Of a DNA stretch of 64,000 nucleotides, positions 26,885 to 56,645 are shown piece after piece (the first letter of the stretch is position 1; each line of letters begins with the position of its first letter). The notes under the pieces were generated by a model. The model was not told where the DNA came from and searched no databases. It saw only the letters and a program-made list of their open reading frames with translations. Both the position numbers and the translations under genes were made by a program. Origin of the DNA: Clostridia bacterium (lineage in GTDB: Bacteria; Bacillota; Clostridia; Oscillospirales; CAG-272); contig JAGBYG010000017.1 in the NCBI GenBank assembly GCA_017628875.1, positions 14,622 to 78,621 on the forward strand, read 5' to 3'.

Positions 26885-26922
26885 AAAAAGCATACCACTC
26901 AATTCGAATGGTATGCTTTTTT
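26885..26922. terminator. Bidirectional terminator between convergent genes
   Basis: Arms AAAAAGCATACCA and TGGTATGCTTTTTT flank an 11-nt loop. A-run and T-run on either side. Confidence 0.75.
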
Positions 26923-27523
26923 ATTGTCGGTTATATGCTTCCAAAAGTAAGTTTTTATCTTCTTGGTTATCAAGGGCTTGAAGTTTAAAATTCATATTGT
27001 TTTCTATCAATTCATCAAATGTAACCGGTGCAAATCCGTTTATATCAACCCCGGCATTCAAAGCATTAAACTGCAAAAACAACTGTCTATATTCTTCAGC
27101 AACTCTGTTATGAATATGACCGTGTATCAGATATCCGAGCTTGCGCTTTGATACTTCCCTACTCGATCTCCATTCAAGCATAGGATAGTGGCACATCGTA
27201 ATTGGATGCCCGTTAAGATGCACCTCTAAATATGGAACAATCTCTTCAAAATACTTTTGACACTCTTCTCTTTTTGCCCAAGTAGAATCGTGATTTCCTG
27301 CAATAAGAATTTTCCTTCCGGAAAGCTGCTCCATATAATATGCAACCTTCTTTTTATCCCAAACCACATCACCTATTAAATAAACAACGTCGTTTTTCTT
27401 GACCTTGCAATTCCAATTTTCTATTAGCTTTGCGTCCATTTCATCGACATCCTTAAATGGTCGGTTACACAAATCAACTATATTCTTATGCCCTAAATGA
27501 AGGTCTGATGCGAATAGTATCAT
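26921..27523 (-). CDS. Calcineurin-like metallophosphoesterase (small YfcE/phage-type)
   Basis: ILFASDLHLGH, IGDVVWD, AGNHDS and GHIHN motifs. RBS AAAGGAG. Confidence 0.8.
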   Translation of the reverse strand: MILFASDLHLGHKNIVDLCNRPFKDVDEMDAKLIENWNCKVKKNDVVYLIGDVVWDKKKVAYYMEQLSGRKILIAGNHDSTWAKREECQKYFEEIVPYLEVHLNGHPITMCHYPMLEWRSSREVSKRKLGYLIHGHIHNRVAEEYRQLFLQFNALNAGVDINGFAPVTFDELIENNMNFKLQALDNQEDKNLLLEAYNRQ

Positions 27524-28500
27524 TCAGCACTCCTTTCTATACTCATAGATTTTACAAACTGCTGTTCAGAAGATATCAAAGCTATAGCCATTTTTTCGGC
27601 CTTGGTTGCAACGTCATCGTCATTATTTGTAACATCGTTCCAATCAATTAATTGAATACCGGTTTCCACTATGCGTATATAATTTTCTATAAAGTTATCT
27701 TGTGCTTCGAAATACTCCTCTATGGATGCGCTGTCACCATTCACTCTGAATTGAACACCGGTATATACTTCTTCCCAAGATGAGTAAATACCATTTTCAA
27801 TTTCTTCCTTAGTTAAGGGAATTTCTACGGCATTAATATCATAATAGGCGTACATCAAACTCGTCTCGTGTAAATATTTATCATTTCCACCCATTGTATG
27901 GGTAATTGTCGCCTTATGAACCAAACGAATTTTTCCCATCCAACCGCTTCGCCATTCAAATTGACCAATCGCCTCGTACATGCCTGTCAACTGATTAAAA
28001 TATATGCACCACGAATTGCTATGACCTCCATCCAACGTACCAATTTCTTTTCCACTTAAGATATCATATACATAATAAAACGCGTTACCCGCTGAACCGC
28101 CACCGACATTAACCAACAATTCCGGAATTCCATCTGTATTTATATCAAACAATGCAAGCTGATATCCGTTCTCTATGCAAGGGCGATCCGGATATAGATA
28201 GGAATACCATTTAATCCCTTTACCCTCATCATAAATTGCTATCTTTTGATTATTCAGTAAGGATACCAAAGCATCCTTCCATTCGGATTTTTCTTCAACG
28301 GATACAAAATCAAAATCAACGTATTTAGTTTGATAAATATATTTTATCTTTTCAATCTCTTCGTTATTATCATCGGTCAAAACCTCATTAGTGTTGTTAC
28401 TTGCTTCCTTTTCTGCGGTTTTATAGTTAATATTTTTAACAAGTAATATACAAATAGCAATTATAAGTATTACAATTATAATATCTTTAATTTTCATCAT
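27520..28500 (-). CDS. N-terminally membrane-anchored hypothetical protein
   Basis: TM helix IIIVILIIAICILLV. Contains FDINTDGIPELLVNVGGG. ATGA overlap with the downstream gene. The start may be the second ATG (28497). Confidence 0.5.
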   Translation of the reverse strand: MMKIKDIIIVILIIAICILLVKNINYKTAEKEASNNTNEVLTDDNNEEIEKIKYIYQTKYVDFDFVSVEEKSEWKDALVSLLNNQKIAIYDEGKGIKWYSYLYPDRPCIENGYQLALFDINTDGIPELLVNVGGGSAGNAFYYVYDILSGKEIGTLDGGHSNSWCIYFNQLTGMYEAIGQFEWRSGWMGKIRLVHKATITHTMGGNDKYLHETSLMYAYYDINAVEIPLTKEEIENGIYSSWEEVYTGVQFRVNGDSASIEEYFEAQDNFIENYIRIVETGIQLIDWNDVTNNDDDVATKAEKMAIALISSEQQFVKSMSIERSAE

Positions 28501-29143
28501 TAATCCTCGTATGGTTCAAATCTCCATTTGACGGTATGGCTCTCGGAGTATCATAAATTGAAGGCACAGAACCTCCTGAAAACCAAACAAACATATAAGT
28601 CGCTCCAATCACCTTATCATTTTCATCAATGCCCCACGCCAACATCAATTGACGTTCACTTTCTTCGCAACGGGTCTTATATCTTTGATAAAACTGCTGC
28701 GCCTTTTCTTCGTCCTTTTCAACTCCGCAATAACCGTTTTTATAGAAAATATATAGTTCATAGTCGGCAGCTGCAAGACCTGCATTCGAGGCAGCAACAA
28801 ACCAGTTCATAGCTTCTTGATAATTTTTCTTAAATGCGAACAAATAAAGTGCATAGTTCATCATTGCAAGCTCATTTCCAAGCTCGGCAGAACGCTTAAA
28901 GCACCTCGCTGCTCTCTCAAAACACCTCTTACCCTTTCGTTCATAGGGCTCGTAGTGCTTTTGCATATCATAATAGTATTCGTAGTTTTTATGGTCAAAT
29001 CTATCGCTTTTGGTAGCCATAGCAATACCACGCTTATACCATTTTAAAGCACTCGTAGTACCCTTAGACATTTCTCCCTCTTGGCGATATCTCTTACACA
29101 AATTTACTCTTTCAATAAGTTCATACTCTTCTTTTCGTTTCAT
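28487..29143 (-). CDS. Sel1/TPR-like repeat protein
   Basis: SAELGNELAMMNYALYLF...EAMNWFVAASNAGLAAADYELYIFY is Sel1-like. 14-nt overlap with the downstream gene. Confidence 0.6.
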   Translation of the reverse strand: MKRKEEYELIERVNLCKRYRQEGEMSKGTTSALKWYKRGIAMATKSDRFDHKNYEYYYDMQKHYEPYERKGKRCFERAARCFKRSAELGNELAMMNYALYLFAFKKNYQEAMNWFVAASNAGLAAADYELYIFYKNGYCGVEKDEEKAQQFYQRYKTRCEESERQLMLAWGIDENDKVIGATYMFVWFSGGSVPSIYDTPRAIPSNGDLNHTRINDEN

Positions 29144-29208
29144 AATTACCCCTTATCACTTACATCTTAAAGACGCCTCTCCCACAAATGCTTTATTAGT
29201 CTTCAAAG

Positions 29209-30213
29209 CTAATCATTTGTAGACAATCTCTTTGAAAAATCCACTATTGTTTCAATCAGCTCCAAATTGTTAAGAAATTTTTCAGGAATATTTTTCACAC
29301 CTAAATATGCCCCGATAATATTCCCCGCTACCGCTCCGGTTGAATCGCTATCTCCACTGTGATTGACGGCGGCAACTACAACTTTTTCAAAATCATTTTT
29401 ATACTTCAAGCAACAATAAACAGCAATAGCTAAAGTTTCCTCGGCTACCCAGCCCGCTCCAAGTTCTCGTATGGCATCAAGATCATCAATGTCTTGCTTC
29501 GATAGGTCAATTGCTTTTTGCAAAAGGTCAAGAACTTCTGATATGTGTTCACTTTGCTTGAACAAACTGGGGACAACTTTTATTGCATCCTCAACTGCAT
29601 CCAAAAGACAAAATCCCTCAAAAATGCGATACAAAATGTGTACAAAGAAAGACGATGGGATATATCCAAGCTCGTGCCCGTGAGTGATTGCTGAAGCTCT
29701 TGCTGCCAACATATCAGCTTCAACACACGCTATTTTTCTGTTATAACAATAGATCGCAATCGGAGCAACACGCATTATACCTCCGCATCCTTTACTCGAA
29801 TTTATAGGGTTTTCGATTGTTCCGCACGCTCTACTTTTCAATGCACTCAAGCAAGTATTGCCTGGAGCGCGAGAATCATAGATACAAGGGATGCTTAATA
29901 AACCGTCGTCGGCTATAGGCGTTTTCAACATTTGCGTCTTATACCAATTCAAATAGGCATTATAAATGGATTCAATAACGATTGAGTGATTTTGAGCAGT
30001 TAACAGTCCTTCTGCCGTAAACAAAGTCATTTGTGTGTCATCCGAAATTAATGCTATTCCATTAAACAAATGATAAGCGGTAATACCATTCTCACCATAT
30101 TTTTCAAATATTCTAAAGTCTTCGTCAAACTCAACAGCATAGCCAAGAGCATCACCCGCGGCTCCTCCAACCAAACAGCCGATTGCTTTCATTTGTTCTT
30201 CATTTAAAATCAT
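29209..30213 (-). CDS. ADP-ribosylglycohydrolase family protein (DraG/ARH-like)
   Basis: GCLVGGAAGDALGYAVEF, ISDDTQMTLF and HSGDSDSTGAVAGNIIGAYLG. Start set at ATG 30213 (AAGGAA 8 nt upstream). The track ORF extends to 30240. Confidence 0.85.
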   Translation of the reverse strand: MILNEEQMKAIGCLVGGAAGDALGYAVEFDEDFRIFEKYGENGITAYHLFNGIALISDDTQMTLFTAEGLLTAQNHSIVIESIYNAYLNWYKTQMLKTPIADDGLLSIPCIYDSRAPGNTCLSALKSRACGTIENPINSSKGCGGIMRVAPIAIYCYNRKIACVEADMLAARASAITHGHELGYIPSSFFVHILYRIFEGFCLLDAVEDAIKVVPSLFKQSEHISEVLDLLQKAIDLSKQDIDDLDAIRELGAGWVAEETLAIAVYCCLKYKNDFEKVVVAAVNHSGDSDSTGAVAGNIIGAYLGVKNIPEKFLNNLELIETIVDFSKRLSTND

Positions 30214-30248
30214 AGTCATTCTTCCTTTAAACTTTAACACAATCTCTT

Positions 30249-30935
30249 TTATTTTTTGACATAATAAACCTTTAACGTATCAATACAAATACATCCGAGA
30301 ACACCGTTACTCCAAGCCCCCGTGTCCAAATGTATTTTATAATAATCCTTTATCGTTTTGGGTGGTATTTTACTATTTCTCCTATAGCCCAGCACTTTGC
30401 TCTTACCACAAATAGAATCAGTTGGAGTATGACCAAAAAACACGCATTGTGGACTATTGTGAGCTACATTGGGATCTTTAAATCTGCGATCGTGGACTAA
30501 TTCCTCCACACTCACTTCAGAAAGTGAAAGCAGCCGCTGATGCTCATCAAGAGGTATGCCCGCGTGTACACAAATAAAATCGTCACTTTCTATGTAGGCG
30601 GGTAAAGCATCAAACCAATCAACCAAATCCCAATCAAGAAGACACTCGTCATCAGAAAAATAAGCTTGTAATTTTTTTAACACTTCTTCAAAATCTGATG
30701 GCGATGTTTCTAAAATAGAATGATAATATTTCAAAAAAGCTAACTCGTGATTTCCAATAATACAATGAATATTAGAAAAAGACGAGATATACTTTGCAAG
30801 TTTTATCGAGCTATCGCCTTTATCGATAATATCACCGCAAATATACATCTCGTCTTGATTTGAAAAATTAATTTTCACGAGTAGCTTTCTGAACAATTCA
30901 TATTCACCATGAATATCAGAAACAAAATATCTCAT
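30249..30935 (-). CDS. PPP-family (lambda/PrpA-like) Ser/Thr protein phosphatase
   Basis: VSDIHGE, CGDIIDKGD and IGNHE motifs. Confidence 0.85.
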   Translation of the reverse strand: MRYFVSDIHGEYELFRKLLVKINFSNQDEMYICGDIIDKGDSSIKLAKYISSFSNIHCIIGNHELAFLKYYHSILETSPSDFEEVLKKLQAYFSDDECLLDWDLVDWFDALPAYIESDDFICVHAGIPLDEHQRLLSLSEVSVEELVHDRRFKDPNVAHNSPQCVFFGHTPTDSICGKSKVLGYRRNSKIPPKTIKDYYKIHLDTGAWSNGVLGCICIDTLKVYYVKK

Positions 30936-30969: not shown

Positions 30970-31896
30970 TTAAATATAATCAGCACATCGACTAGCCAAA
31001 GCCCTAACATCTGATACTCTAAGACTTCTACCAATCGCCTTGAAATTCCACGATTCGTTTTTCTTATATGCCATACCGATAACAATTGCAGTATCTCTAC
31101 CCATATTACCGTTTACGCGATATTGAATCAAAGTTTTCTTAGAGTCGGGATCATACAATTTGATGTAAAGATTTTTAACCTTATCAAGAGTCTGTCCACG
31201 GTCATCACAATTGTAAATGTTCAGAACAAACACTAACTTATCTCTCTGACGGGGAACTTTATTCAAATAAACCGAAATGTTTTCGTCATCGCCATCCTGA
31301 ATTCCACCCTCACCGGTCAAGTTATCACCGTGGTGGATTACACAACCGGACGAATGCTCTTTGTTGCTAAAATGCACGAGATCGTGCTCACAATTATTAG
31401 GAGACATAACAACAACAGAAGAATCAACGTCCATATTATGTTCACCCGGATCAGGATCCCAGCCAACACCAACCATAATCTTGGTCAAAGGTCTATCGTC
31501 AGCATACCTAATCTTAACCTCTTGACCCTGGGATAAGGTTACAGTACCTCCCGCTCTGCTTCCAACCTCAGATGCAGTAGGTAATGAATAGTCTATTTTA
31601 AGTGCATCACAATAAATACAATCGAATTGATATTTCATATTGCGTGCGCACTGATGCTTCTTCTTAGCGCAACTACAACCACCAACCTTGCGATTACCAC
31701 ATCTAGAACAAGCTATAAGATTTGCATTTGTTTCGAAAAAGCTCTGCTCTATTTCCGACGAAATAATTTTAGCTTCATCACTTGAAAGTTGAATCATATT
31801 AACAACCTTCCACGCAGAGCCGAATTTTTTAATTTCCAAACCAAAATATTGATTTGTCTTCTCGCAATATGCCTTCAAAAATTTACTTTCTGCCAT
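30970..31896 (-). CDS. TerD-domain protein with an N-terminal extension containing a Cys cluster (Zn-ribbon-like)
   Basis: CSRCGNRKVGGCSCAKKKHQC...CIYC, then VGVGWDPDP...DVDSSVVVM...GDNLTGEG...DDENISVYL...LVFVLNIYN (TerD fold). RBS AAAGGGG. Confidence 0.8.
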   Translation of the reverse strand: MAESKFLKAYCEKTNQYFGLEIKKFGSAWKVVNMIQLSSDEAKIISSEIEQSFFETNANLIACSRCGNRKVGGCSCAKKKHQCARNMKYQFDCIYCDALKIDYSLPTASEVGSRAGGTVTLSQGQEVKIRYADDRPLTKIMVGVGWDPDPGEHNMDVDSSVVVMSPNNCEHDLVHFSNKEHSSGCVIHHGDNLTGEGGIQDGDDENISVYLNKVPRQRDKLVFVLNIYNCDDRGQTLDKVKNLYIKLYDPDSKKTLIQYRVNGNMGRDTAIVIGMAYKKNESWNFKAIGRSLRVSDVRALASRCADYI

Positions 31897-32088
31897 TTTT
31901 ATACCCCTTTATTAGTTATTCTATTCTTATTTCTCAATATTAGTCAGACGAGTCGCATGATCTACAGCGAAACGTTCTGTTTGGGCACTATTCCATTTAT
32001 AATACCGCACTTAGTTAACAGCAAATATTTTTGTTATTTTAAAAGAATTGTTGTCCGGTTCAGACATATTCCCTCTCAATCAACAAAA

Positions 32089-33129
32089 TCAATACCCTAA
32101 AATTTGCACACTAACTCCATTAGAAATTAATTGCGATTTAAAACGCATAATACCTCGACGCGCCTCTAACAACAAATTTCTGCTTGAATTACACCTAACA
32201 TTAAACTCTTTGTTCCAAGTGCGTTCACCAACAAAATCTGAGTCCTTTAAACCAAAATAAGTATACGATACCCTTTCACCTGCAGAATCCCACGTTACAT
32301 CAATATGATAATTGTCGTGATCATCGTTCAGCTTAAGTATATTCCAAGCGTGATATGTGGTGGAGCCTTTCGTCTGTCCACAAACAATATCACAAGGAAT
32401 TCCCGCATAGTCCATCAATCGCTTAAATGCTTCTGCATAGCCTTGGCACACACACTTTTTCTTTATCAATGCACCATATGCACTTTGCATATAACTCTTT
32501 TCCAAGCTCGAAGCATCTTCTTTCAAAGTATAGTCAATTGTATGAGCCAAATAATTATGCGCCAAAAAAGCTTTCGTTTCATCACTCATTCCCGGCAAAA
32601 AAATCTGCTTTGCAATCCTTGAAATTTCAGCATTTGTCTCGTTTTCCATCATAGCCAATTTTACTTTTCCAATTCTATAATCAAAATAAAAATCATAAAA
32701 CGGAATCGGTGTAGCTGAACATTGTCCTTTTGCAATACTTGCACCCACATAGTTAGAATAAAAAGGAGCACTAACTATTGAGAACTTCTGATATTCAGAA
32801 TCAATATCAACACCGGGTTTGGCAAACAAAATCAAACGAGTTTTATAGTTTCCTATATACTGACACAAAATACTATGTACTTCTTCTGCACGTGATACAA
32901 CATAAATATCATTTTGTGAAACATCTTCGTTTTGGTATTTAACCTTAAAAAGTATTTTAGGCCCTCCCGAATATGTCATAGAAGCAGAAATTTCGGCCAA
33001 ATAATATACAATCTTTATATTTTGAGCAATCACATTATTTAGAATATTGGTATTAGCTCCAATTGCATCAATCATTATTTTTGTTTCAAAACGTTGCAAC
33101 GCTTTGAGTAATTCGGTTTCCCTACTCAT
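32089..33129 (-). CDS. Transglutaminase-like cysteine protease-fold protein
   Basis: Cys-His-Asp triad context: CVCQGYAEAF, TYHAWNILKL, HIDVTWD. Start set at ATG 33129 (GTGAGGA RBS). The track ORF starts at GTG 33141, abutting the upstream stop. Confidence 0.8.
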   Translation of the reverse strand: MSRETELLKALQRFETKIMIDAIGANTNILNNVIAQNIKIVYYLAEISASMTYSGGPKILFKVKYQNEDVSQNDIYVVSRAEEVHSILCQYIGNYKTRLILFAKPGVDIDSEYQKFSIVSAPFYSNYVGASIAKGQCSATPIPFYDFYFDYRIGKVKLAMMENETNAEISRIAKQIFLPGMSDETKAFLAHNYLAHTIDYTLKEDASSLEKSYMQSAYGALIKKKCVCQGYAEAFKRLMDYAGIPCDIVCGQTKGSTTYHAWNILKLNDDHDNYHIDVTWDSAGERVSYTYFGLKDSDFVGERTWNKEFNVRCNSSRNLLLEARRGIMRFKSQLISNGVSVQILGY

Positions 33130-33141
33130 TAATATCCTCAC

Positions 33142-34032
33142 TTAATATCTGGAGTATGGAACTCCCAACTCCTGTAATTTTCCAATTCTATCGTGTGTTT
33201 CAGGATGAGAAGCATATAATGCCTTCATCAATGAATTTTGAGGCATTCCTGTACCAATAGAATCAAGTGCAGCAGCTAACTCATAGCCATATCCGATTTC
33301 CATCGCATATTTGTCTGCAACATACTCATTGGCTCTCGAGGACCACATCAAAAAGAGCATACAAAACTTTGTCCATAACCAAACCATCGCAGAACAAATA
33401 ACACCCACTATAGTAAATGCACAACCACAGCCTCTTTTACCTTCATCTCGACTAAAGCTTAATACAGTTCCAATAGCAGTAATTATTCCTGATATCAATT
33501 TTACTACCATAAGCACAAAAGTAATAATAAAGTTACCGCCACCAATCAACAATTGAATATCAGTGTGATGACAAGCCAAATGCCCCATTTCGTGAGCTAA
33601 AATTCCCTCAATCATCTCATCAGGTAAATCAAACAAGCCTTCAGTCACACAAATCGTATGCCTTCCAAGAGCAAATGCGTTAGGATTGGGATCATACATT
33701 ACCTTGAGATTTATTATTCGAGTCATATCCGGTGTTTTAGCTAAAGCTTTGTTGTGTACACGTGTAATTATTGGAAGCATACGATTTCTCATATCAAGTC
33801 TTCTCATTTTACGTGCGCCCGACATAAGTCCTAAAATCCACTCTCCAATAGGGGAAAGTGCAAAAAAAGCTGAAAATAAATATATCGTAATAATAGCACT
33901 CAATGACGCGGAGCTAAATGAAGCGAATATTCCGATAACCATATACGCATTCAATAAGAAGAATATTATAGTTCCTATATTTGATACTCTAAATATTTTT
34001 TTAAAAAGACTTATTATATACAAAATTAACAC
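33142..34032 (-). CDS. M48-family (HtpX-like) membrane zinc metalloprotease
   Basis: HEMGHLACHH (HExxH), multiple TM helices and ASHPETHDRIGKL at the C-terminus. The start codon is uncertain (GTG 34032 or TTG 34023). Confidence 0.85.
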   Translation of the reverse strand: MLILYIISLFKKIFRVSNIGTIIFFLLNAYMVIGIFASFSSASLSAIITIYLFSAFFALSPIGEWILGLMSGARKMRRLDMRNRMLPIITRVHNKALAKTPDMTRIINLKVMYDPNPNAFALGRHTICVTEGLFDLPDEMIEGILAHEMGHLACHHTDIQLLIGGGNFIITFVLMVVKLISGIITAIGTVLSFSRDEGKRGCGCAFTIVGVICSAMVWLWTKFCMLFLMWSSRANEYVADKYAMEIGYGYELAAALDSIGTGMPQNSLMKALYASHPETHDRIGKLQELGVPYSRY

Positions 34033-34038
34033 CTCTTC

Positions 34039-35265
34039 TCATATCCGCGATTTTCTACGAAGGAGGGGTTCTCTTAAATAGCACATAACCTCTTCAGGAC
34101 GAAGCTCACGGAATATTTCCGGACGATAAATGGGTTTATTTACCTTTTGAAAGCTTACAGTAGTTGAATTGTACTTTTGGGGTGTAGCTACAACGCCACC
34201 GCTATTCAAAGACCTTGAAAAAGGATTCCAGCCCTTACGTCTGGTATAGGAGAAGCTTCTTTCTTGAACATCTCTGCTACCAAAGAAGGCCGACCAAAAC
34301 AATGCATTATTCTCCGATCCCTGTGTGAATACCAAGAATGATTTTGTCTTTTCAAGCAATTCGTTACCATTCTTTTCTATATATTTCGAAATATCCTCCA
34401 TCAAAATATAAACAGCGCAATCAATATCAAAGTTATATTCCATAAGAGCTTTTGCCACTTCATCTTGCATAAAATCCATATTGTTCAAAACAATGGACAT
34501 CGGGTGTTTACTCGCAGAACGTTCTGCACAAAAATTCACTGCATACATAACAGCGTTAAGCAAAAGTTCCCTTTTCTTTTTATCCTCGCTCGCATAACCA
34601 CTTATTATAGATACATTACCCTTTGTGAAAACCTCATCGCAGCTTTTGTCACCGGATAATACTCTACATACACCTGAGCTTTCCAGCTGAATCATATATG
34701 ACTCAAAATCCAAAAAATCGGAGTATGTCGTAGCATCGCTCAAAAATCTTAATCTTCTGTTTTTCTCAAAGTCATCTAAAGAAGACCTATTGACTGCATC
34801 AATAACATAGTCAAGATCGATTTTTGCAAGCTCCTTTAAAGTGTATGGTTTGCTTAATTTGTCAAACGTATCAATTGCATAATAGTAAAACCGATATGCC
34901 TTGTTACGTAAGGTTTCACTAATATCTGCCACATAACCAAAAAGCGTGACAATAAACGTCGCCTTGTCCTCAGGAGTATTAAATGCTGTTAAAATATCAA
35001 TCTGGTTATCCGAAGAGGATAAGCTAATATCATATATTCTTTTTTCAAACGGAGTGATCAGCGATTTCGTTTGAGAATACTTCTCTGAAGTGACCGCATC
35101 CTGAAAAATAAGCAACGTTCTGTTTTTATTCAGTTGATGTATAATAAGGTCTCTATAGGCTGTAATACGCCCCACGTTTTCTACACCGGAAATCATCATG
35201 TTTCCAAGCGATTTTGCAATATTATCAGCATCCATTCGCTCAAACAATTTGCAAATTATATTCAT
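34039..35265 (-). CDS. Hypothetical protein, possibly a degenerate P-loop (HerA/FtsK/VirD4-like) fold
   Basis: ISGVENVGRIT resembles a Walker A with K to R and T to I changes. The tail G...RRKGWNPF...IYRPEIFRELRPEEVMCYL recalls coupling-protein C-termini. The function call is weak. Confidence 0.45.
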   Translation of the reverse strand: MNIICKLFERMDADNIAKSLGNMMISGVENVGRITAYRDLIIHQLNKNRTLLIFQDAVTSEKYSQTKSLITPFEKRIYDISLSSSDNQIDILTAFNTPEDKATFIVTLFGYVADISETLRNKAYRFYYYAIDTFDKLSKPYTLKELAKIDLDYVIDAVNRSSLDDFEKNRRLRFLSDATTYSDFLDFESYMIQLESSGVCRVLSGDKSCDEVFTKGNVSIISGYASEDKKKRELLLNAVMYAVNFCAERSASKHPMSIVLNNMDFMQDEVAKALMEYNFDIDCAVYILMEDISKYIEKNGNELLEKTKSFLVFTQGSENNALFWSAFFGSRDVQERSFSYTRRKGWNPFSRSLNSGGVVATPQKYNSTTVSFQKVNKPIYRPEIFRELRPEEVMCYLREPLLRRKSRI

Positions 35266-36345: not shown

Positions 36346-36354
36346 ATAAGCCTC

Positions 36355-49101: not shown

Positions 49102-49162
49102 AAAAATTACCTCCAATTTTCATTTTTTATTTAATATTAATTAAATAAATATATTAGTAATC

Positions 49163-49316: not shown

Positions 49317-50018
49317 TTATAAGTAAAATTCTTGCATATCATCCAACCGCAACAGCGCTGGAGACAAACCTATTGCAGCACCGGTATCAACGTCAATCCA
49401 CGTGCTTGTTTTTAAAATTTTACCTTTAAATTTATCTCCATAAAAATATGTTGGTGTGTGTCCTAAAATGGTAATAAACTCAAGGGAATACTGGGTTGAT
49501 AGATTCGGACGACTCCACAATAAATCATTTTCAGAACACTCGGTTAGTTTTTTTATCTTCCCGCTTTCACTAAGACCAAGACCCGCGTGAACAAGCAAAT
49601 AGTTTTTCCCACCAACCGAAACCGTATCATATAACGGAGTTTCTTGCAAATATTCCAAAATCATTTGCCTCATTCCAGAAGTTTCCTTAGAAAGCTCCGC
49701 GATGGTTGCTTCGCCGCCATTTGCTTGCCATACATTTAGCCATCTGACCTTTCTCATATTAAAATTGTCAATTGATTCATCGGTAATTTCGTCAAACAGG
49801 AAGTCGCAGGAAAGTAACATCTGCTCGTGATTGCCGCGAATCAACTTAATGTTGGGCTCAAACATAATGTATTTAATTAATTCCACACCGTGTTCCCCAC
49901 GGTCTATGATATCGCCCAAGACAAATAAATAATCATCAGGACCAAAATTGACCTTATTTAAAAGTTCTTTGATTTTTTCAATTGATATTCCGTGCCAATC
50001 GGAAGAAACATATACCAT
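49317..50018 (-). CDS. PPP-family (lambda/PrpA-like) Ser/Thr protein phosphatase
   Basis: SSDWHG, LGDIIDRGE and RGNHE motifs. ATG 50018 lies 5 nt after AGAGG. The track ORF starts at GTG 50024. Confidence 0.85.
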   Translation of the reverse strand: MVYVSSDWHGISIEKIKELLNKVNFGPDDYLFVLGDIIDRGEHGVELIKYIMFEPNIKLIRGNHEQMLLSCDFLFDEITDESIDNFNMRKVRWLNVWQANGGEATIAELSKETSGMRQMILEYLQETPLYDTVSVGGKNYLLVHAGLGLSESGKIKKLTECSENDLLWSRPNLSTQYSLEFITILGHTPTYFYGDKFKGKILKTSTWIDVDTGAAIGLSPALLRLDDMQEFYL

Positions 50019-50142
50019 ATACACCTCTATTATTTTTGTATTTATCTCTTATATAATCGTTGCATCTTAGCAAGTGTAAATATTATATCATTGCCTTCAA
50101 ATCAAATAAAAAGGGGGGCGATATTTTCCTCAAATTGCAAAA

Positions 50143-50164
50143 AAGGGGGGCCGTAGCACCCCTT
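50143..50164 (-). terminator. Short GC hairpin + T6 downstream of the giant kinase-nuclease gene
   Basis: Minus strand AAGGGGTGCTACGGCCCCCCTTTTTT. The stem is only 4-5 bp. Confidence 0.45.
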
Positions 50165-50206
50165 AATAAATTATTTTTTCGAGAAACGATTTTAATATTA
50201 TTTGTA

Positions 50207-53200
50207 TCAGAGTTTTTCAAGCTCTTCCTTCTTTTTTTTCTGCAAAGTCATAAGCTCAGCAACAAATATTTTAACCCCTTTCATTAAAGAAAATGTTTCT
50301 TCTGTTTGCTTAAGAAAATCCCCTATAGTGCGAATTTTATTATTTGCAAGAATTTGTGTCTTACTCTGATCCAACCCCAACACCTTTATATTTTGCGCAA
50401 GATATTCTTCACGTGTCATTTTGCCCGCTGTTTGAGATGGATTTTTTGCAGGAGCAGACTCAACCTGTTTTTTCTCTTGAGGTTGGAATGTTGTTTTAGG
50501 CTGAGACTGGGGTTGAGGTGTAGCTTTAGTTGGAATATTTAGTAATCGCGCTAAAGTGATATCAATATTATCTATTTCTTTAGGATTGGAAATCGTAATC
50601 ACATCCAGCATATTACCTCTTTGACGCTGCATCTCATTGTTTGAATTATCGCTACTTTGTTGTTCAACAGTATCTGCAATTAAAACAGGCATGCAATTAG
50701 TGCTAAATTGATTTGCAAGAGATGACAATTTAAAATAATAACCCTGATCAATATTTTCAGTTGCCTTTGCCTCAACCAACAAGCCTGCAAATCCCTTAGT
50801 AATAATAATGTCAAACTCGCTCTTTACAGGGGTACCCTCCCAATTAATTTCATAGCTTGTAGCAACATCATCAAACAAACCACTCTTCAAACACTTGTGA
50901 TAAATATATATTTCAAGAATATTTCCGGCATTGGTCAATAGCTTTTTGATTCGTTTCGTTGCATAAGTAAAACTAACAAATCTATTGTCCTCCCCAGACT
51001 CAATATAATCGGTAATAAATGAGCGATTTTCAAGCCATTGTAACAATTTTTTAATGTTGTCAACTTGATTTACTTTGCCCTTCAGTTCAACGTTTTGAAC
51101 TGTAAGATAATCAAAAGAAACAACTACAGAATATGGAGTTTTAACGAACTCGATGCTTTCGGGTTGACTCAGCACATAAGGATCTGCCATAAAGCTTTTA
51201 ATCTTTGCCGAAAGTGATTTCGGTGCATAGATATTAACTTCACAGGAATCGGTTGTATAGAAAAGCACTTCAGATTCTTTGGTGAAAACACCAACGTCTA
51301 TCATTGTGGAAATAAATTTTTGAACTCCATCATAAGCAATTGCGGGCACCAAAAATCTGTACTTGATACAGGGATTGTTAGCCTTTTCAATATCTGTGTT
51401 AATCGTCATGATCTTATCTTCTGATTTGTGATAATCTTCAAGCAATCCGCACATTTTTTTCCACACAAATTCTCTCTTTCGATATGCTTCTTTCCACAAT
51501 GCCTCATAATCATTATAAAATGCCGTGGGAGATTCCAAATAACCCTTTGAGTTTTTGGATGCAAACATATCCGAAATTTTTAAATACTGATCCGTCCTAA
51601 TAAATTTCAAAAACTCACAGTTTACCGTTTCATAAAACTTTCGCGTATTTATGTCAAATCGATAGTGGGGATATTTCGAATAAACCCCGGCGCCCAGAAG
51701 AATACCGGAAAGATAAGTATCATTTTGTTCTGCTGCATCAAATCGAAGTTTGGTATTAATTACATCATAAACACATTGTGCAACGCAAGAATTATTTTGA
51801 TATTCTTTGATGATAATCTTTTTAATTCTGGAATCCAGTCTAAAAAGCTCGGTTTTCATTTGTTCAACGGCTTTGCGGATTTTTTCGTCCTTGCAATGTG
51901 TTATAACAAAATTTATTTTTGCCGCAATGGTTTTTTCGCGCATATAACTCAAAGTGTAATACAATGCATCTTTAAACTCTTCTATTTGGCTTATTTTCTT
52001 AATATCAAACAAGTATGTAATTTGAAAAGGATTTACAACAGTTGCTGCCGCAACGTTTTCAAATATTTTAGTATTTGCGCCACACGAGAACGGAATAAGT
52101 AAATGGATATCCCTTCTATATGTCAAAATGAACGGAATATATTTAACCAAATCCGCATCATAATTCTTATAATCCGTATAACGCATGCTCTTTAATATTA
52201 TTGCAACACGACTATCTATCAGAGTTATAAGCGCCTTGGCAGTTGATATGTCCTGTGCATTAAGAGCTTCAAGTGATTCTAATAATACTCTTTTCAGCTT
52301 ATTGTACTCTCTTGCAGAATTACTATTTCCGTTCCACAATAACGACAAACAAGAATACCATTCAGAAAATGCTATGCTTGCAGGAGCACTTTTACTCGCA
52401 ATAGTTCTAAGTTGAAGCATCGACGAATCCAACAAGATGTTCTTTTTCTTCCAACTATTAGCTGCGTTCATATAAACTTGATGAAGTCTAACCGACATTT
52501 GATCAAGATCATCAAGAGTATCCAAATCCTTTTTTTCTGCATTATCCCATTTTGACAATGTCCAAGCTGCAGTTTGAAGGGGTGCGCTAGCTGTGCTTCT
52601 TAACAAACAAATATGTCGTTTAGCTTTTTTATCATTCGGTTCTCCTGTCACACAAGATTCCAAGTCCTGATTGCATGCCCAACCGGCGCATATCTTTTCA
52701 CACACCCATCTTCTATGTTCAAGCGCTATCAATTCATTTTTAATATGATTTGAAGATGCGTTCATTTTTCTATAACACTCAGTAGCGGCATTAGTCAAAT
52801 CATCTAAAGCAATACCGAAGCTATAAAGTTTATATTTAATAGAAACCACATTCGAAAAAGATGCATTATAGTTATATTGCTCCTTAAATTTGGCGTATGA
52901 TTTTTTCAAATCAATATTTAATCCGGATTCCCAAATCAAATGTGCATTAAATGCCATTCTCTCAATGTCTTTATATAATGCTTCGGAGGCAATATCATCA
53001 CACATATATACAGGATTACCAAGAGGTTTTCTACCAAGGTGTTCTCCATCATATGCAAAATTAACTGAACATTCCCTAATGTCCTTCATAACTGAAGTAA
53101 TGGCTTTAGCAACTCCTTTATTAAGAGAATCATCACCAAGAGCAACAAAAACATAGTGTGCCTTGTTATGTTTCGATACTATTTCTAAGGCAATATCTTT

Positions 53201-54712
53201 ATTTATTTTTAATTTATCACGAACAAATTCCTTGTTTTCAAAAGAAATATATCCATATGGGTCTTTACAATAGCTTCCGTCAATGCTAAAGAAATCAACA
53301 AGAGCCGGACGTCTGGAAAGGTAAATATCTTTGTCTCGCTTGCCCTCATCACGATCATTAGACACTACGTGTACACTGAGCTTCTTACCCAAAATTTGCC
53401 CCACCTGCAAACAGCAATCCAAAAACATCTGTCCATAATTTCCAAATCCAATAATTACCACATCTAATGTTTCGCTATCAGCAGGAAGACACTCAAACAA
53501 GGGTTTTTTATACAAATGATACATAAATGTTAGATAAGAACCCACACCTAACTTTTTGTAAGCTTCCTTTTCCAAAACAACCAATTGCTTTCCGATTGGG
53601 AGGTCAGTATTAACTTCAGCAGGATAAAGATATGCCAATGCCCTTTTAAGATCATTTGCCAAATCCTCACAGCTTTGATATCTCGTCCTTTTAGACTCAG
53701 CTAAGCAGTTTTTAAGGATTGAAACAAGTTCATGTTTAAGGTACACATTTGAATTTGTCTCAGAAGCAGAAATGATTTTAGAAGAATCAATCAATTGTGT
53801 GATCTTGGTATAATACTCCTTGGAGTATCCCTCGATTTTGATTTCATCATTATCAACTAACGCAGAAAACAAGGTGCAACCTATAGAATATATGTCGCTT
53901 GTGTTATCTGCTTGTCCGTTTACAATTTCAGGTGCTCTAAAGCCCTCTGTTCCATATACCGCTGTAACAGAACTGTTTGGAGAATATATTATTGTATTAA
54001 CATCAAACAATTTAATAGAGTCTGTTAAAAGTTCTCCTTTTCTTTCTAGAACACCAAAGTTTTTTGGTTTAATATCCAAATGCAGCAATCTGTTTTCGTG
54101 TAGAATCTTTACACATTCCGTTAGAGTAAGCATTGTTTTTAAAATATTAAAAAGCTTATGCTCCGGATTTATATTGGGGTGCTTATGTACTTCGGCAATG
54201 TATTTGTCAAAAACAGTCAGCTTCTCAGAAGTTGTCCAAATATATGCAGTAGAGCCTTCAAGAATATTTCCATCAGAATCACAACCATAATAAATAGTAA
54301 AATCGGAAATAAAATTTGTAAAGTCTGAATTGTTTTTGTTCTTTTCTATGACTTTTCTAAGATTATGATACGATTCAACAAACTCTGTTCTCGCAGAAAT
54401 AAATGCTTCTTTTGTTTTTTCAGAGGCAACAATGTGATTTTGTGCATCTCTTTCGAGTGAAAATGGCATCCCCATTTTTGAACATTCAAGGGGATAAAAC
54501 TCTTTTAATCTTCCTGTTTTTCCTTCTCCAATTAAAGTGGCTTCATAGCAAACACAGGACCCGCCCTCTCCTGCAACACTATTTATTTTAAAGAAATCTC
54601 CTCCGTTATCAAGGGATCCTTCTCTGCGAAGATAAATAATCTTTCCTCTTGTAATACCAAAAGTGTTCTTGTTACACGAAATGCTTTTCACAGGTATTCT
54701 TTGATTATTCAT
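50207..54712 (-). CDS. Giant multi-domain protein: Ser/Thr kinase + Rossmann-like + RyR-like + CARF-like (tentative) + Card1/DUF1887-like PD-(D/E)xK nuclease + P/Q linker + HhH (RpoA-CTD-like)
   Basis: GEGGSCVCYEA, GRLKEF, HLDIKPKN, GTEGFRAPE; VVIIGFGNYG; LEHRRWVCEKICAGW; ILEIYIYHK...EFDIIITKGFAGLLVEAKA (K codon at 50765-50767); IKVLGLDQSKTQILANNKIRTIGDFL. ATG 54712 lies 7 nt after AAAGGA. The track ORF starts at TTG 54718. Confidence 0.8.
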   Translation of the reverse strand: MNNQRIPVKSISCNKNTFGITRGKIIYLRREGSLDNGGDFFKINSVAGEGGSCVCYEATLIGEGKTGRLKEFYPLECSKMGMPFSLERDAQNHIVASEKTKEAFISARTEFVESYHNLRKVIEKNKNNSDFTNFISDFTIYYGCDSDGNILEGSTAYIWTTSEKLTVFDKYIAEVHKHPNINPEHKLFNILKTMLTLTECVKILHENRLLHLDIKPKNFGVLERKGELLTDSIKLFDVNTIIYSPNSSVTAVYGTEGFRAPEIVNGQADNTSDIYSIGCTLFSALVDNDEIKIEGYSKEYYTKITQLIDSSKIISASETNSNVYLKHELVSILKNCLAESKRTRYQSCEDLANDLKRALAYLYPAEVNTDLPIGKQLVVLEKEAYKKLGVGSYLTFMYHLYKKPLFECLPADSETLDVVIIGFGNYGQMFLDCCLQVGQILGKKLSVHVVSNDRDEGKRDKDIYLSRRPALVDFFSIDGSYCKDPYGYISFENKEFVRDKLKINKDIALEIVSKHNKAHYVFVALGDDSLNKGVAKAITSVMKDIRECSVNFAYDGEHLGRKPLGNPVYMCDDIASEALYKDIERMAFNAHLIWESGLNIDLKKSYAKFKEQYNYNASFSNVVSIKYKLYSFGIALDDLTNAATECYRKMNASSNHIKNELIALEHRRWVCEKICAGWACNQDLESCVTGEPNDKKAKRHICLLRSTASAPLQTAAWTLSKWDNAEKKDLDTLDDLDQMSVRLHQVYMNAANSWKKKNILLDSSMLQLRTIASKSAPASIAFSEWYSCLSLLWNGNSNSAREYNKLKRVLLESLEALNAQDISTAKALITLIDSRVAIILKSMRYTDYKNYDADLVKYIPFILTYRRDIHLLIPFSCGANTKIFENVAAATVVNPFQITYLFDIKKISQIEEFKDALYYTLSYMREKTIAAKINFVITHCKDEKIRKAVEQMKTELFRLDSRIKKIIIKEYQNNSCVAQCVYDVINTKLRFDAAEQNDTYLSGILLGAGVYSKYPHYRFDINTRKFYETVNCEFLKFIRTDQYLKISDMFASKNSKGYLESPTAFYNDYEALWKEAYRKREFVWKKMCGLLEDYHKSEDKIMTINTDIEKANNPCIKYRFLVPAIAYDGVQKFISTMIDVGVFTKESEVLFYTTDSCEVNIYAPKSLSAKIKSFMADPYVLSQPESIEFVKTPYSVVVSFDYLTVQNVELKGKVNQVDNIKKLLQWLENRSFITDYIESGEDNRFVSFTYATKRIKKLLTNAGNILEIYIYHKCLKSGLFDDVATSYEINWEGTPVKSEFDIIITKGFAGLLVEAKATENIDQGYYFKLSSLANQFSTNCMPVLIADTVEQQSSDNSNNEMQRQRGNMLDVITISNPKEIDNIDITLARLLNIPTKATPQPQSQPKTTFQPQEKKQVESAPAKNPSQTAGKMTREEYLAQNIKVLGLDQSKTQILANNKIRTIGDFLKQTEETFSLMKGVKIFVAELMTLQKKKKEELEKL

Positions 54713-54764
54713 ATACAAATCCTTTCTTTAGTTGCTTTGTGATAATTTCAAAACACTGTTTCTA

Positions 54765-56465
54765 TCAACTTAAAAAATTATTAATCTTGCAATAAGCAAA
54801 AAATATCACAAACACATCATATATATTTTTAGAGCTGATTTTCTGGTACCCCGCATCTTCCAAATAAGGATTCAGGCAAGAACTCATATCATCATAAACA
54901 TCTTTAAAGCTTTTCCACACATCCTTATTATCATCCAAACCATTTTCTAAACAATAAAAGTGGTAGTATGCGGCTATCATTTTTGTTCTGGTAACTCCCA
55001 TAGTATCGGTAATACCGATAGCTTCATAAGGATTTAATCTCTTTTCAATATTTTTCATTATTAAGAGAAAATCGCTCAATTCTTTTTCTTCCAAAGCAAT
55101 AGATCTAAAATACTTTAAATCCGAACAGGGTACGTTTTGCTCAAGCTCACTAACTCTCATAATTACAATATTATTTTCGTCTGAAAACATATTATCGAAG
55201 CTTTCACCGTCTGCAACATCCTTAATTGTTCTTCGATCTATTTTGCTAAAATCAGCGTGCGCAGGCAAATACAATGCATCTCTAATCAAATCAAGAATCG
55301 CATTATATTGGGTATATGCGGAATTAATAGCAATTTGCAATTCAAACAGTCCTTTATACCCCTCTTGAAGTTCACCCGTTTTTTTATTAACATATGTGTA
55401 TCTTAAATCACAATAATAATTCTCAAGAAGATATTTTTCAAAAGCATCTTCATCCAATCCGCTTATAACAGTATCAATACGGTTTCTATACGTACCGGTT
55501 GGAATATCTTCATAAATGCTCTTTTGAGTTTCAATGTATGTATAATTACTCTTCCAAGTATTCTTAACCTTGTTGATCATAGTATAGAATCTTGATACCT
55601 TTTGAGATGCCTCAATGCCCTCCATATTTAAGTAGTAAATAAATGCTACGTCTATAAAATTTTTCGGATTTATCCCAAAACCTGAAGGTTCTTTATCAGA
55701 GTTTCCGCTCTTTCCGCCATCTTCTGAATAAATATATCTTGTCAAGTTATCACAGTAATAGTCCTCAAATAAATTCTTTTCAACATCTCTTTGCAGGATA
55801 TAATTGTGAATATTCTTCGAAGCATAATATCTCATATCATATGCAAACGCAAGTAAAAACAATAGCTCTTTTGTTGTAACCGGAGATACAAAAACACCTT
55901 TTGCCAGATTAAATGCTGCCTGTACCAAAGGAAAATAATCACATTTTTCAGCAGAATTATTAGATAAAGCTTCAAAAATAGATTCGTCAACGTCGCATAT
56001 TTCTTTTTTTGCTAATGTTTTGGAATAGTATTTTTTGTTTTCCTTAACGTTTACCGTCATCATAAAACGCCTCAATATACGCAATTGCAAAGAGCCGCTT
56101 CCCGTGGTGCTTGGATCTAACAAATCAACGATGCGTTGCATAAATTCACCGGGTTGCGGATATGTTGCATACACGTTATTTAAAACATTAACAATTCTTT
56201 GGTTTATCTCATCCGCATCAGCAGGAATATCCAAACTCAAAACTATTTTTTCATAATATGAAAGTGACTTGCCATATTCACACTTTTTTCCCGCGTCATT
56301 AAGCATTTGCACCAATTTGCCTATAACAAATGGTTGGTTACTGTTTTTTGTCTCTTTGGCAATTTTAAGCAAATACAAAAAATCCTTTTTACAATAAAGA
56401 TTAGTAAATAAGTCTTGTATGCCCAACTCGACAACATCCATTCTTTGAGTAATTGCTCCTATCAT
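54765..56465 (-). CDS. Hypothetical, predicted all-alpha protein of unknown function (566 aa)
   Basis: Start moved to ATG 56465 behind an AGGAGG RBS. I recognise no motif. It is the first gene after the promoter at 56617-56645 and lies directly upstream of the giant gene. Confidence 0.6.
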   Translation of the reverse strand: MIGAITQRMDVVELGIQDLFTNLYCKKDFLYLLKIAKETKNSNQPFVIGKLVQMLNDAGKKCEYGKSLSYYEKIVLSLDIPADADEINQRIVNVLNNVYATYPQPGEFMQRIVDLLDPSTTGSGSLQLRILRRFMMTVNVKENKKYYSKTLAKKEICDVDESIFEALSNNSAEKCDYFPLVQAAFNLAKGVFVSPVTTKELLFLLAFAYDMRYYASKNIHNYILQRDVEKNLFEDYYCDNLTRYIYSEDGGKSGNSDKEPSGFGINPKNFIDVAFIYYLNMEGIEASQKVSRFYTMINKVKNTWKSNYTYIETQKSIYEDIPTGTYRNRIDTVISGLDEDAFEKYLLENYYCDLRYTYVNKKTGELQEGYKGLFELQIAINSAYTQYNAILDLIRDALYLPAHADFSKIDRRTIKDVADGESFDNMFSDENNIVIMRVSELEQNVPCSDLKYFRSIALEEKELSDFLLIMKNIEKRLNPYEAIGITDTMGVTRTKMIAAYYHFYCLENGLDDNKDVWKSFKDVYDDMSSCLNPYLEDAGYQKISSKNIYDVFVIFFAYCKINNFLS

Positions 56466-56616
56466 TTTAGTCCTCCTTACACAAATATACAAAGCAAATA
56501 TTGTATTGTATAGTCCTTTCTAACTTTTGGTGATTAAGAGTACAATATCTTAAACAGCGAATTTCAAAAATTGCTCAAAAGCCATTCCCTATTTTTGAAA
56601 TTCAAATAACAATATT

Positions 56617-56645
56617 ATTGTATCATATATGTATATTTTTGTCAA
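56617..56645 (-). promoter_or_regulatory. SigA-type promoter for the 54765-56465 / giant gene unit
   Basis: On the minus strand: TTGACA (56640-56645), a 17-nt spacer ending in TGa, then TACAAT (56617-56622). Confidence 0.55.

Follow-up and report, generated by a model that had tools for sequence, protein, structure and literature searches.

A 30-kb run of conflict-type genes in a gut clostridial contig

The window analysed here is a 64,000-nucleotide (nt) stretch of a Clostridia bacterium contig (JAGBYG010000017.1) that originates from a ruminant-gut metagenome, and much of it is taken up by a run of about 30 kb (26921-56492) in which genes g01 to g22 encode kinases, phosphatases, proteases and other conflict-type proteins. 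We propose, with a probability of roughly 0.6, that at least three conflict-type cassettes, each with its own inheritance and each pairing a kinase or protease with a phosphatase or adaptor, have come to lie next to one another in this run as a mosaic, rather than forming one 30-kb system. The parts are named here M1 (49317-56492), M2 (43126-49116), M3 (35398-43103), M4a and M4b (together 30970-35265) and M5 (26921-30935), and their features are collected in Table 1.

Table 1. Genes and sites of the run and its flanks (window coordinates; numbers after family names are E values)
Feature	Position	Strand	Support
Orphan TIR gene, left, between GNAT and GDSL-lipase genes	24873-26189	+	TIR_2 3e-14; PADLOC covers TIR domain only
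Terminator-like site	26921-26885	-	consensus scan
g01 (M5), YfcE-like Metallophos_2 protein	26921-27523	-	Pfam
g02 (M5), 326-amino-acid (aa) transmembrane (TM) protein	within 26921-30935	-	Pfam scan
g03 (M5), weak-Sel1 protein	within 26921-30935	-	Pfam scan
g04 (M5), ADP-ribosylglycohydrolase (ARH)	29209-30240	-	ARH 1.1e-67
g05 (M5), PPP-type phosphoesterase	30249-30935	-	Metallophos (Pfam)
M4b pair (g06, g07)	30970-33141	-	
g06, TerD protein with Cys-rich 115-aa N-terminal domain	30970-31896	-	TerD 4.8e-44
g07, transglutaminase-like thiol peptidase	32089-33141	-	Transglut_core 7e-9
M4a pair (g08, g09)	33142-35265	-	
g08, membrane M48 metallopeptidase (HEMGH)	33142-34032	-	Peptidase_M48 7e-23
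g09, 408-aa protein (unk408)		-	
g10 (M3), RanBP2-type zinc finger, six Sel1 repeats	35398-36345	-	Sel1 7e-68
g11 (M3), RanBP2-type zinc finger, BspA-type LRR, C-terminal multi-TM region	36355-37341	-	Zn_ribbon_RanBP 8.6e-5; LRR_5 1e-13; TM-family matches
g12 (M3), RanBP2-type zinc finger, hydrophobic helix, one kinase C-terminal repeat	37354-37881	-	W-x-C-x2-C-x3-N-x6-C-x2-C
g13 (M3), Hanks-type kinase (residues 1-300), three C-terminal repeats	37899-39449	-	Pkinase 1.5e-21
g14 (M3), PP2C (residues 1-340), helical/coiled-coil tail of ~350 residues	39430-41538	-	AlphaFold and Foldseek
Terminator-like hairpin, GC-rich, directly 3' of last vWA stop	41654-41625	-	consensus scan; 12-bp stem, 9 GC pairs, T-rich tail
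g15, g16 (M3), tandem 228-aa cytosolic vWA proteins, MIDAS motif DxTxS	41663-43103	-	VWA_4 (8e-12)/VWA_2
g17 (M2), small YbjN-family protein	43126-43647	-	YbjN 1.2e-8
g18 (M2), soluble 1161-aa protease	43655-47140	-	AAA 7e-49; AAA_2 4e-35; Peptidase_M41 1.2e-29
Promoter-like site	47246-47218	-	consensus scan
g19 (M2), N-terminal TM helices, TrkA-N-like Rossmann domain, C-terminal RyR-like module	47311-49116	-	TrkA_N 3.7e-5; RyR 0.031
Promoter-like site	49191-49163	-	consensus scan
g20 (M1), PPP-type (lambda-phosphatase-like) metallophosphatase	49317-50024	-	Metallophos 2.7e-16; DWHG/GDIIDRG/GNHE
Terminator-like site	50162-50147	-	consensus scan
g21 (M1), 1503-aa kinase-nuclease	50207-54718	-	Pkinase 1.6e-19; Card1_endonuc; PADLOC CARF_PDDEXK 4.5e-10
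g22, first gene of M1, 575-aa protein	54765-56492	-	no Pfam, NCBIfam or PADLOC match
Promoter-like site 5' of M1, TTGACA-17-TACAAT with TG	56645-56617	-	consensus scan, 11/12 matches
TIR-Sel1 gene, right	62443-63306	+	TIR_2 3e-18; Sel1
TIR-LRR gene, right, cut by window end	63328-64000	+	TIR_2 7e-10; LRR_5

An earlier note on this DNA, made from the letters alone, had placed every gene of the run on the minus strand and had found no metabolic or housekeeping gene among them. The listing of open reading frames (ORFs) agrees: all 22 are on the minus strand, the plus-strand ORFs within the run are nested antisense artefacts, and the content is accessory and conflict-like, with zero housekeeping genes in between. 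Most of the domains named in that note were recovered with Pfam, namely two Hanks-type kinases (g13 and g21, which also match kinases in Foldseek), three calcineurin-like phosphoesterases (with D[IW]HG/GDIIDxG/GNHE in the translations of g05 and g20), an AAA-protease of the M41 type (two AAA domains and Peptidase_M41), M48 and transglutaminase-like proteases, two vWA proteins (VWA_4/VWA_2), TerD, ARH, and Sel1 and LRR repeat proteins. The PP2C was borne out through a structure model, and the PD-(D/E)xK nuclease is Card1-like (Pfam E 3e-4 on the isolated piece, along with the PADLOC match). An integrase remnant reported at 62.1 kb was not recovered, there being no Pfam match and nothing recognisable in six frames.

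The reading as a mosaic is carried by the distribution of these genes across 41 genome loci, 80 metagenome loci and 9 further contexts. The genome loci were collected with an alignment of the PP2C, taking one genome per species and flanks of up to 10 kb on each side, and searched by tblastn with all window proteins; they come from Ruminococcus, Oscillospiraceae, Lachnospiraceae, Christensenella and other Clostridia, and contain the vWA-PP2C-kinase triad of M3. The metagenome loci were obtained by a reverse search of metagenome contigs with an alignment of the family-specific middle region of the M2 protease (AAA-M41). Not one of these 80 loci carries the vWA, the PP2C or the triad kinase, which argues that M2 is autonomous and lies beside the triad only occasionally. 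Orthologues of the M1 genes g21 and g22 adjoin the triad in no other genome, the sole g21 match there (24%) being in locus L006, and ARH, both PPP-type genes, g01, g03 and the flanking TIR, GNAT and GDSL genes are beside it in 0 of 41. In the nearest relative (L004, PP2C 78% identical) M2 and M3 are present, M1 is absent and the downstream genes differ. The comparison with related genomes that the earlier note had proposed upholds the parts as conserved cassettes at differing genomic places; elsewhere M1 lies beside restriction-modification, TIR and CAP12 genes, and M3 mostly among housekeeping genes.

A conserved vWA-PP2C-kinase triad forms the core of M3

Sequence profiles hardly detect the phosphatase g14, as it has no Pfam match and a weak NCBIfam one (E 0.0013); on the proteins that Pfam left unassigned NCBIfam was of no use. 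An AlphaFold2 model built from 73 homologues (predicted local distance difference test, pLDDT, 92) matched Stp1, tPphA and PstP in Foldseek (E 5e-9, probability 1.0), and the motifs ADGLGG, GDSRPY, SDG and DDSS are invariant across those 73; the family counts at least 290 PP2C homologues. The kinase g13 carries the motifs HSDLKxxN and DFD, and its C-terminal part folds in the model (pLDDT 88.7) into three repeats of ~55 aa with the order beta-alpha-beta-beta-beta-alpha-beta (residues 313-372, 379-438 and 456-515). Pfam and Foldseek gave no identification of the repeat fold apart from a weak MotCF hint (E 0.046). The repeats have the motif PWPEHxIxFD...G[IV]xGY (window 37899-38500), and one copy is found at the C-terminus of g12 (37354-37540).

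The triad is collinear and on the same strand in essentially every locus not broken by a contig end, with one to five tandem vWA copies 5' of the PP2C in 40 of 44 loci and the kinase collinear with the PP2C in 43 of 44. Across genera the vWA proteins are 70-91% identical where the PP2C is 35-78% identical, and the vWA family comprises 2119 representative clusters. A copy of the triad (47, 25 and 29% identity) also lies on plasmid pHAU01 of Herpetosiphon (Chloroflexi), between transposases and a resolvase; this copy and the size of the vWA family suggest that the triad is an old, mobile unit. Cultured rumen isolates carrying it are Ruminococcus flavefaciens MC2020 and Ruminococcus spp. XPD3002 and YRD2003.

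The GC-rich hairpin that follows the last vWA stop is kept at the same position in most related loci (L004-L044), though with differing sequences, which suggests that the vWA genes form a unit of their own, probably with higher expression. A second, AT-rich hairpin lies at ~41560-41600; in closer relatives it is long and 5' of the PP2C ribosome-binding site. In five Ruminococcus loci (L012, L022, L025, L034 and L044) the vWA-PP2C spacer measures 315-370 nt and apparently encodes a small hydrophobic peptide 3' of the hairpin, which has no counterpart between vWA and PP2C in the window.

M3 fits a TerY-P-like system with new features. TerY-P triads were described by Anantharaman, Iyer and Aravind (2012) as a vWA protein, a PP2C and a Ser/Thr kinase with a zinc ribbon, according to PMC11090510 and PMC10542128. 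In the TerY-P concept (PMC11090510) a kinase and a PP2C switch the metal-dependent binding of the vWA protein, and the triad is coupled to variable partner modules.

RanBP2-type zinc fingers and accessory pairs downstream of the triad

Three consecutive genes downstream of the kinase (g10-g12) each open with a perfect, eukaryote-style RanBP2 zinc-finger (ZnF) motif. Across the related loci we counted 45 such ZnF-led ORFs in 32 of 42 loci, the motif (W-x-C-x2-4-C-x3-N-x6-C-x2-C) being always N-terminal and absent from shuffled proteomes (0), and most of them start 2-50 nt past the kinase stop. The finger is joined to Sel1 repeats (23 loci), an LRR-TM protein, plain TM proteins or a copy of the kinase C-terminal repeat. 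The Sel1 form, g10, lies 3' of the kinase in 23 loci and is the commonest fourth gene of the triad system; g11 is found in about 20 triad loci, and g12, linked to the kinase repeats by DNA repeat D5, has tblastn matches in 40 loci, partly through that repeat.

Farther downstream the genes vary. The unk408-M48 pair (M4a) recurs 3' of the triad in L010 and L039, with M48 alone in L029, L031 and L036, and the transglutaminase-TerD pair (M4b) immediately follows the kinase in L005, L040 and L042, one or both of its members being present in L006, L020, L029 and L039. Each of these four genes is found in 4-10 triad loci, TerD in ~7 of 41, as an optional accessory. We rejected unk408 as a degenerate ATPase resembling type IV coupling proteins (BLASTP E 0.31). 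Elsewhere the genes 3' of the triad encode TIR proteins, a Tox-GHH nuclease with a SUKH-1 immunity protein, a TrwB-like coupling ATPase or an Mbeg1-like lipase. Four loci (L004, L007, L010 and L039) share a recurrent post-triad cassette made up of a ZnF-TM protein, a 4-TM protein, SUKH-1 immunity protein, Tox-GHH toxin and TrwB/TraD-like ATPase, sometimes followed by another vWA gene, which resembles a polymorphic-toxin or secretion module.

M2 carries a double-AAA M41 protease

The protease g18 is built from an N-terminal domain, a Clp-type AAA_2 domain, a conserved middle region of 330 aa, an FtsH-type AAA domain and an M41 peptidase (HEAGH), and its sequence has Walker A and Walker B intact in both AAA domains. 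YbjN genes adjoin AAA-M41 in 35 of the 80 metagenome loci, often in two copies, and in all five genome loci with g18, and g17 is likely to be an adaptor or chaperone for g18, judging from this neighbourhood. The TM-Rossmann-RyR protein adjoins AAA-M41 in 12 of the 80 loci and in 4 triad loci as well. Near the triad, AAA-M41, YbjN and TM-RyR occur in 5-8 loci, and apart from the window only 5 lineages have the block 5' of the vWA genes.

In three Lachnospiraceae loci (L029, L031 and L036) a distant homologue of the TM-Rossmann-RyR protein (21-22% identical) stands immediately 5' of the vWA gene in divergent orientation, a second, independent arrangement that links this type of protein to the triad. 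On the metagenome contig L056 (12408-14040) the genes 3' of AAA-M41 and YbjN are an ARH-like one (E 9e-8 to g04) and a PPP-like one of which the start is present (E 1.6e-6 to g20). ARH and PPP genes may accompany the protease module repeatedly.

M1 combines a kinase-nuclease with a phosphatase

The large protein g21 has a Hanks kinase domain (~120-370, with PknB-type matches in the Protein Data Bank), a Rossmann and RyR-like region (~414-720), a middle region, a Card1-like PD-(D/E)xK domain (~1240-1390) and a helical tail. Its Rossmann/RyR module is homologous to that of g19 (BLASTP 2e-7). The earlier note had called two RyR modules; as Pfam RyR (PF02026) domains both fall below threshold (g19 E 0.031, g21 E 0.23; 14.9 and 12.2 bits against a gathering cut-off of 27.4), and RyR-like is the best label. 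Aligned to the RyR1 repeat, g19 scores E 0.16, with the motif H..W...G[WY]...H..LV.[YF]..L.EEEK conserved. True Pfam RyR mini-proteins adjoin g21 homologues elsewhere, and this, like the homology of the two regions, supports the RyR call indirectly.

At least 413 full-length relatives of g21 (1390-1550 aa) have both Pkinase and Card1_endonuc. Homologues of g22 (574-593 aa; 45% and 32% identity measured) lie 5' of g21 homologues in L053, L054/L055 and L137-L140. The order g22-g21-g20 itself is found in L054/L055, as genes of 592 aa, 1548 aa and a 237-aa Metallophos protein (45, 52 and 42% identity), where the surrounding genes are metabolic and unrelated. L053 and L137-L140 have a 575-aa protein, a PP2C_2, the kinase-nuclease and an RyR protein in this order, with PP2C_2 in place of the PPP, and L136 keeps the kinase-nuclease and RyR genes but has a 994-aa protein where the PP2C and the 575-aa partner would be. 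The neighbours of these cassettes include type I HsdR, an Eco47II restriction-modification pair, several TIR proteins, a CAP12-PCTIR TIR protein and IS66. M1 is thus a self-contained cassette, and the exchange of PPP for PP2C, two non-homologous folds, is strong evidence that its function depends on a protein phosphatase.

Between M1 and an HTH_17/LuxR regulator (g24, 60364-61587) lies g23 (57144-59708), which contains internal DNA repeats of ~450 nt and 66 nt (D6-D8); its 854-aa product is rich in Cys, starts with a signal peptide and has no Pfam, NCBIfam or PADLOC match. In L004 an HTH_17 gene (1834-1971) that is 57% identical to the N-terminus of g24 lies ~800 bp 5' of TM-RyR, with neither M1 nor g23, a hint that the lineage of the window gained M1 and g23 by insertion between M2 and the regulator.

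M5, flanking genes and boundaries of the run

The five genes of M5 are not conserved with M1, M2 or M3; the one exception among g01-g03 near the triad is a relative of g02 (32% identical) that follows TerD in L005. Since TerD has been proposed to bind nucleotide derivatives, g01 and g05 may be nucleotide phosphodiesterases rather than protein phosphatases. TIR genes do lie on both flanks, as the earlier note had stated, one on the left and a tandem orphan pair on the right.

The left flank (1.5-23.5 kb) is a sugar-utilisation locus (GH3, GH43, SASA esterases, an ABC importer and an AraC regulator) whose 11 sugar-utilisation genes likewise all lie on the minus strand, so that co-orientation is not evidence of anything. 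It also holds an 846-aa gene (3866-6406) without a Pfam match, with six tandem 123-nt repeats (5026-6170) and the lowest GC content at third codon positions (GC3) in the flank, 0.26.

The earlier note had suggested comparing base composition and codon usage with this flank. GC3 is 0.29-0.33 in the run against 0.37-0.42 in the flank, about 5-8 points lower, with g17-g18 (0.37) as an exception; GC along the run is uneven (0.32-0.41), and both are consistent with a mosaic origin. The distance in relative synonymous codon usage between run and flank is within the gene-to-gene scatter of the flank and is not discriminating. GC skew was rejected as evidence for a leading-strand position, for it tracks the coding strand, changing sign where genes lie on the plus strand (23-27 kb). 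By consensus scans, promoter-like or terminator-like sites lie in seven intergenic gaps of 120-650 bp. Scans of the window gave no tRNA, Rfam RNA or flanking (att or direct) repeat as a boundary mark, nor an integrase domain that would denote a mobile element.

One system, a mosaic or chance

The earlier note had regarded the run as a defence or conflict island whose parts may cooperate. The accessory, conflict-like content, the lower GC3 and the orphan TIR genes on the flanks uphold this in part, but cooperation across 30 kb does not follow from density and orientation, as co-occurrence splits the run. That the whole 30 kb is one integrated super-system working in a single pathway is very improbable and largely refuted by the co-occurrence data: the triad is missing from all 80 AAA-M41 loci, M1 stands alone in other contexts, ARH, the PPPs, g01 and g03 accompany the triad in none of the 41 loci, L004 pairs M2 and M3 with other downstream genes and no M1, several promoter-like or terminator-like breaks divide the run, and the co-direction of its 22 genes, with no unrelated gene between them, extends to the flank genes as well. 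What such a system has in its favour beyond this layout is the homologous module in g19 and g21, the ARH-like and PPP-like genes after AAA-M41-YbjN in L056, and the contact of M2 with M3. The opposite extreme, a chance accumulation of unrelated accessory genes in a genome where same-strand runs are normal and signalling domains common, would agree with the 11 minus-strand flank genes, the codon usage and the lack of a detected mobile-element boundary; it is hardly likely either, given three multi-gene blocks that are each kept as a unit across genera, the crowding of three cassettes and three orphan TIR genes into 40 kb with zero housekeeping genes, and a GC3 consistently under that of the flank. 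Several results nevertheless speak against our reading of the run as separate, conflict-type, TerY-P-like cassettes. In 6 lineages M2 and M3 adjoin directly, each time in the order AAA-M41-YbjN-vWA, and together with the two arrangements in which TM-RyR touches the triad this makes some functional coupling between cassettes possible, such as cross-talk of M2 with M3. Exact-protein look-ups for strain variation returned the same strain in the same context only. The vWA protein found no enterobacterial terY match among 72,556 plasmids, no TerY-named PADLOC model is among the matches listed for the window proteins (for the kinase, the best 25 of 28), and the PADLOC models on run proteins match single domains only. 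The PP2C family is absent from a viral contig collection, which says nothing on phage interplay. Finally, the earlier note held that finding the same genes scattered among core genes in relatives would speak against an island, and for the triad this is half the case: within 5 kb its neighbours elsewhere are mostly glycoside hydrolases, tRNA synthetases, GNATs and transporters, and amid such ordinary metabolic genes defence by association is weak for M3.

The last point bears on function. PP2C and Hanks kinase pairs are common regulators of growth and envelope, and M3 and M2 at least might serve chemical or envelope stress signalling of a Ter-like kind with regulated proteolysis, instead of acting against phages or plasmids; vWA and TerD proteins would then sense metals or a metabolite, and the kinase and PP2C would tune physiology. 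The triad's neighbours elsewhere, which also include proteins with carbohydrate-binding modules, agree with this, as does the want of a known defence signature protein in PADLOC, and TerY-P triads were first proposed as metal-sensing switches tied to tellurite resistance, according to PMC11090510. A search for known defence systems, as the earlier note had proposed, gave single-domain matches with PADLOC on 32 proteins and recognised no known system, and known-defence clustering in the window amounts to the orphan TIR genes and these domain-level matches. We nevertheless consider stress signalling unlikely: the chromosomal position of the triad differs in each genome and its plasmid copy lies beside transposases, the genes that follow it vary strongly, with TIR, Tox-GHH and SUKH immunity, and ATPases resembling type IV coupling proteins among them, M1 lies in restriction-modification/TIR islands, and a TerY-P variant (kinase-OB fold; Gao et al. 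2020) is described in PMC11090510 as an experimentally validated stand-alone antiphage system.

Possible roles of the cassettes

The domain identities, the make-up of the cassettes and their independent distribution are observed; under the reading as a mosaic of cassettes, the biochemical steps and the defence role that we infer would be as follows. In M3 an abundant cytosolic vWA protein, made from its own unit, would be the sensor or substrate, and its MIDAS-dependent binding would be toggled by the Hanks kinase and the PP2C-coiled-coil phosphatase. The RanBP2-ZnF-led proteins would dock on the kinase/phosphatase complex as interchangeable outputs, as if the zinc ribbon of the TerY-P kinase had been split off to become the common N-terminal handle of swappable output proteins; the transglutaminase-TerD and unk408-M48 pairs of M4 could be effectors or modulators. 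M2 would be an autonomous regulated-proteolysis module of a double-AAA M41 protease, a YbjN adaptor and a membrane Rossmann-RyR protein, perhaps a separate system that acts by proteolysis in defence or stress. In M1 the cognate phosphatase would hold the giant kinase-nuclease off, with a toxin-antitoxin logic like that of KKP (below), and infection or loss of the phosphatase would free kinase and nuclease so that infection is aborted; the PD-(D/E)xK nuclease would be the effector and the Rossmann/RyR module a possible ligand sensor.

We suggest tentatively, and with some doubt, that the window holds two undescribed anti-phage or anti-plasmid systems of gut Clostridia. One would have four parts, namely a 575-aa partner, a phosphatase of the PPP or PP2C type serving as antitoxin and guard, a kinase-Rossmann-RyR-nuclease of 1400-1500 aa whose nuclease would be the abortive effector, and an RyR module. 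The other would be a TerY-P derivative with RanBP2 fingers, in which ZnF plug-in adaptors would couple the vWA/kinase/PP2C switch to membrane, Sel1 or LRR outputs.

In bacterial immunity, reversible Ser/Thr phosphorylation (Stk2, KKP, TerY-P) is a logic that is emerging and still thinly sampled, and three compact, widely conserved cassettes, with at least 290, 413 and 80 relatives, make it testable. The natural exchange of PPP for PP2C around one kinase-nuclease points to a guard or antitoxin role, a ZnF "plug" is common to many output proteins, and the conserved post-vWA terminator-like hairpin probably sets the vWA:enzyme stoichiometry. The cultured Ruminococcus carriers of the triad make experiments feasible. 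More generally, a dense, co-directional, conflict-looking run of 30 kb need not be a single system.

Comparison with known systems

M3 shares with TerY-P triads a small vWA gene with an adjacent PP2C and an adjacent Ser/Thr kinase, conservation combined with mobility, possible vWA duplication, a zinc-binding ribbon at the kinase step and docking onto varied partners, AAA+ ATPases included. It differs in that its kinase carries three novel non-Cys repeats instead of a C-terminal TerY-C zinc ribbon (no TerY_C or zinc-ribbon match was found in g13), the zinc finger being of the RanBP2 type and split off onto the N-terminus of separate downstream proteins, that is, opening the next gene or genes. 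In addition the PP2C ends in its long coiled coil, no closeness of the vWA to enterobacterial TerY was detected, and no McrBC/CoCoNuT or DNA-processing partner stands at M3. The TerY-P variant of Gao et al. shares the three-gene vWA/PP2C/kinase logic, and its antiphage role is the only experimentally supported one for such triads; the M3 kinase C-terminus was not identified as an OB fold, and M3 has conserved extra ZnF-led genes. With PADLOC the vWA and PP2C of M3 had no match at E<=0.01, and the g13 kinase matched mad6, PD-T4-6 and MkoA.

Two further systems resemble M3 or M2 in part. The ter operon shares a TerD-domain protein and TerY-like vWA proteins with the run, and TerB, TerC, TerZ/A/E/F and TelA had no Pfam match among the ~45 window proteins scanned. 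The vWA-MoxR-FtsH ternary conflict systems (Kaur et al. 2020, PMC7159879) share a vWA beside a protein with two FtsH-type AAA+ domains, within a conflict-system frame. By contrast, g18 has a Clp-type first AAA domain, intact Walker motifs and an M41 peptidase, vWA genes accompany the AAA-M41 module in none of the 80 loci, and Pfam found no MoxR AAA+ ATPase among the window proteins.

The precedent that best suits the proposed mechanism of M1, and possibly that of M3, is KKP of Pf prophages in Pseudomonas, a demonstrated defence in which kinase toxicity is restrained by the cognate phosphatase and which is triggered by a phage protein that inhibits this phosphatase (PMC11341870). The likeness is one of logic; KKP is prophage-borne and has no nuclease, vWA or RyR. 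The nuclease of g21 matches Card1_endonuc and CARF_PDDEXK, models of the ancillary Card1/Can2-type CARF-PD-(D/E)xK nucleases, and its kinase domain matches the kinase regions of the single-gene kinase defences PD-T4-6, MADS mad6 and Mokosh MkoA in PADLOC, but these matches each span a single domain and no CARF domain was detected in g21. A kinase joined to a Rossmann/RyR module and a nuclease, encoded with a phosphatase and a 575-aa partner, fits none of the systems listed here. M1 and M2 are further uncharacterised cassettes beside a TerY-P-like M3, and together the cassettes look like uncharacterised bacterial self-defence modules related to TerY-P.

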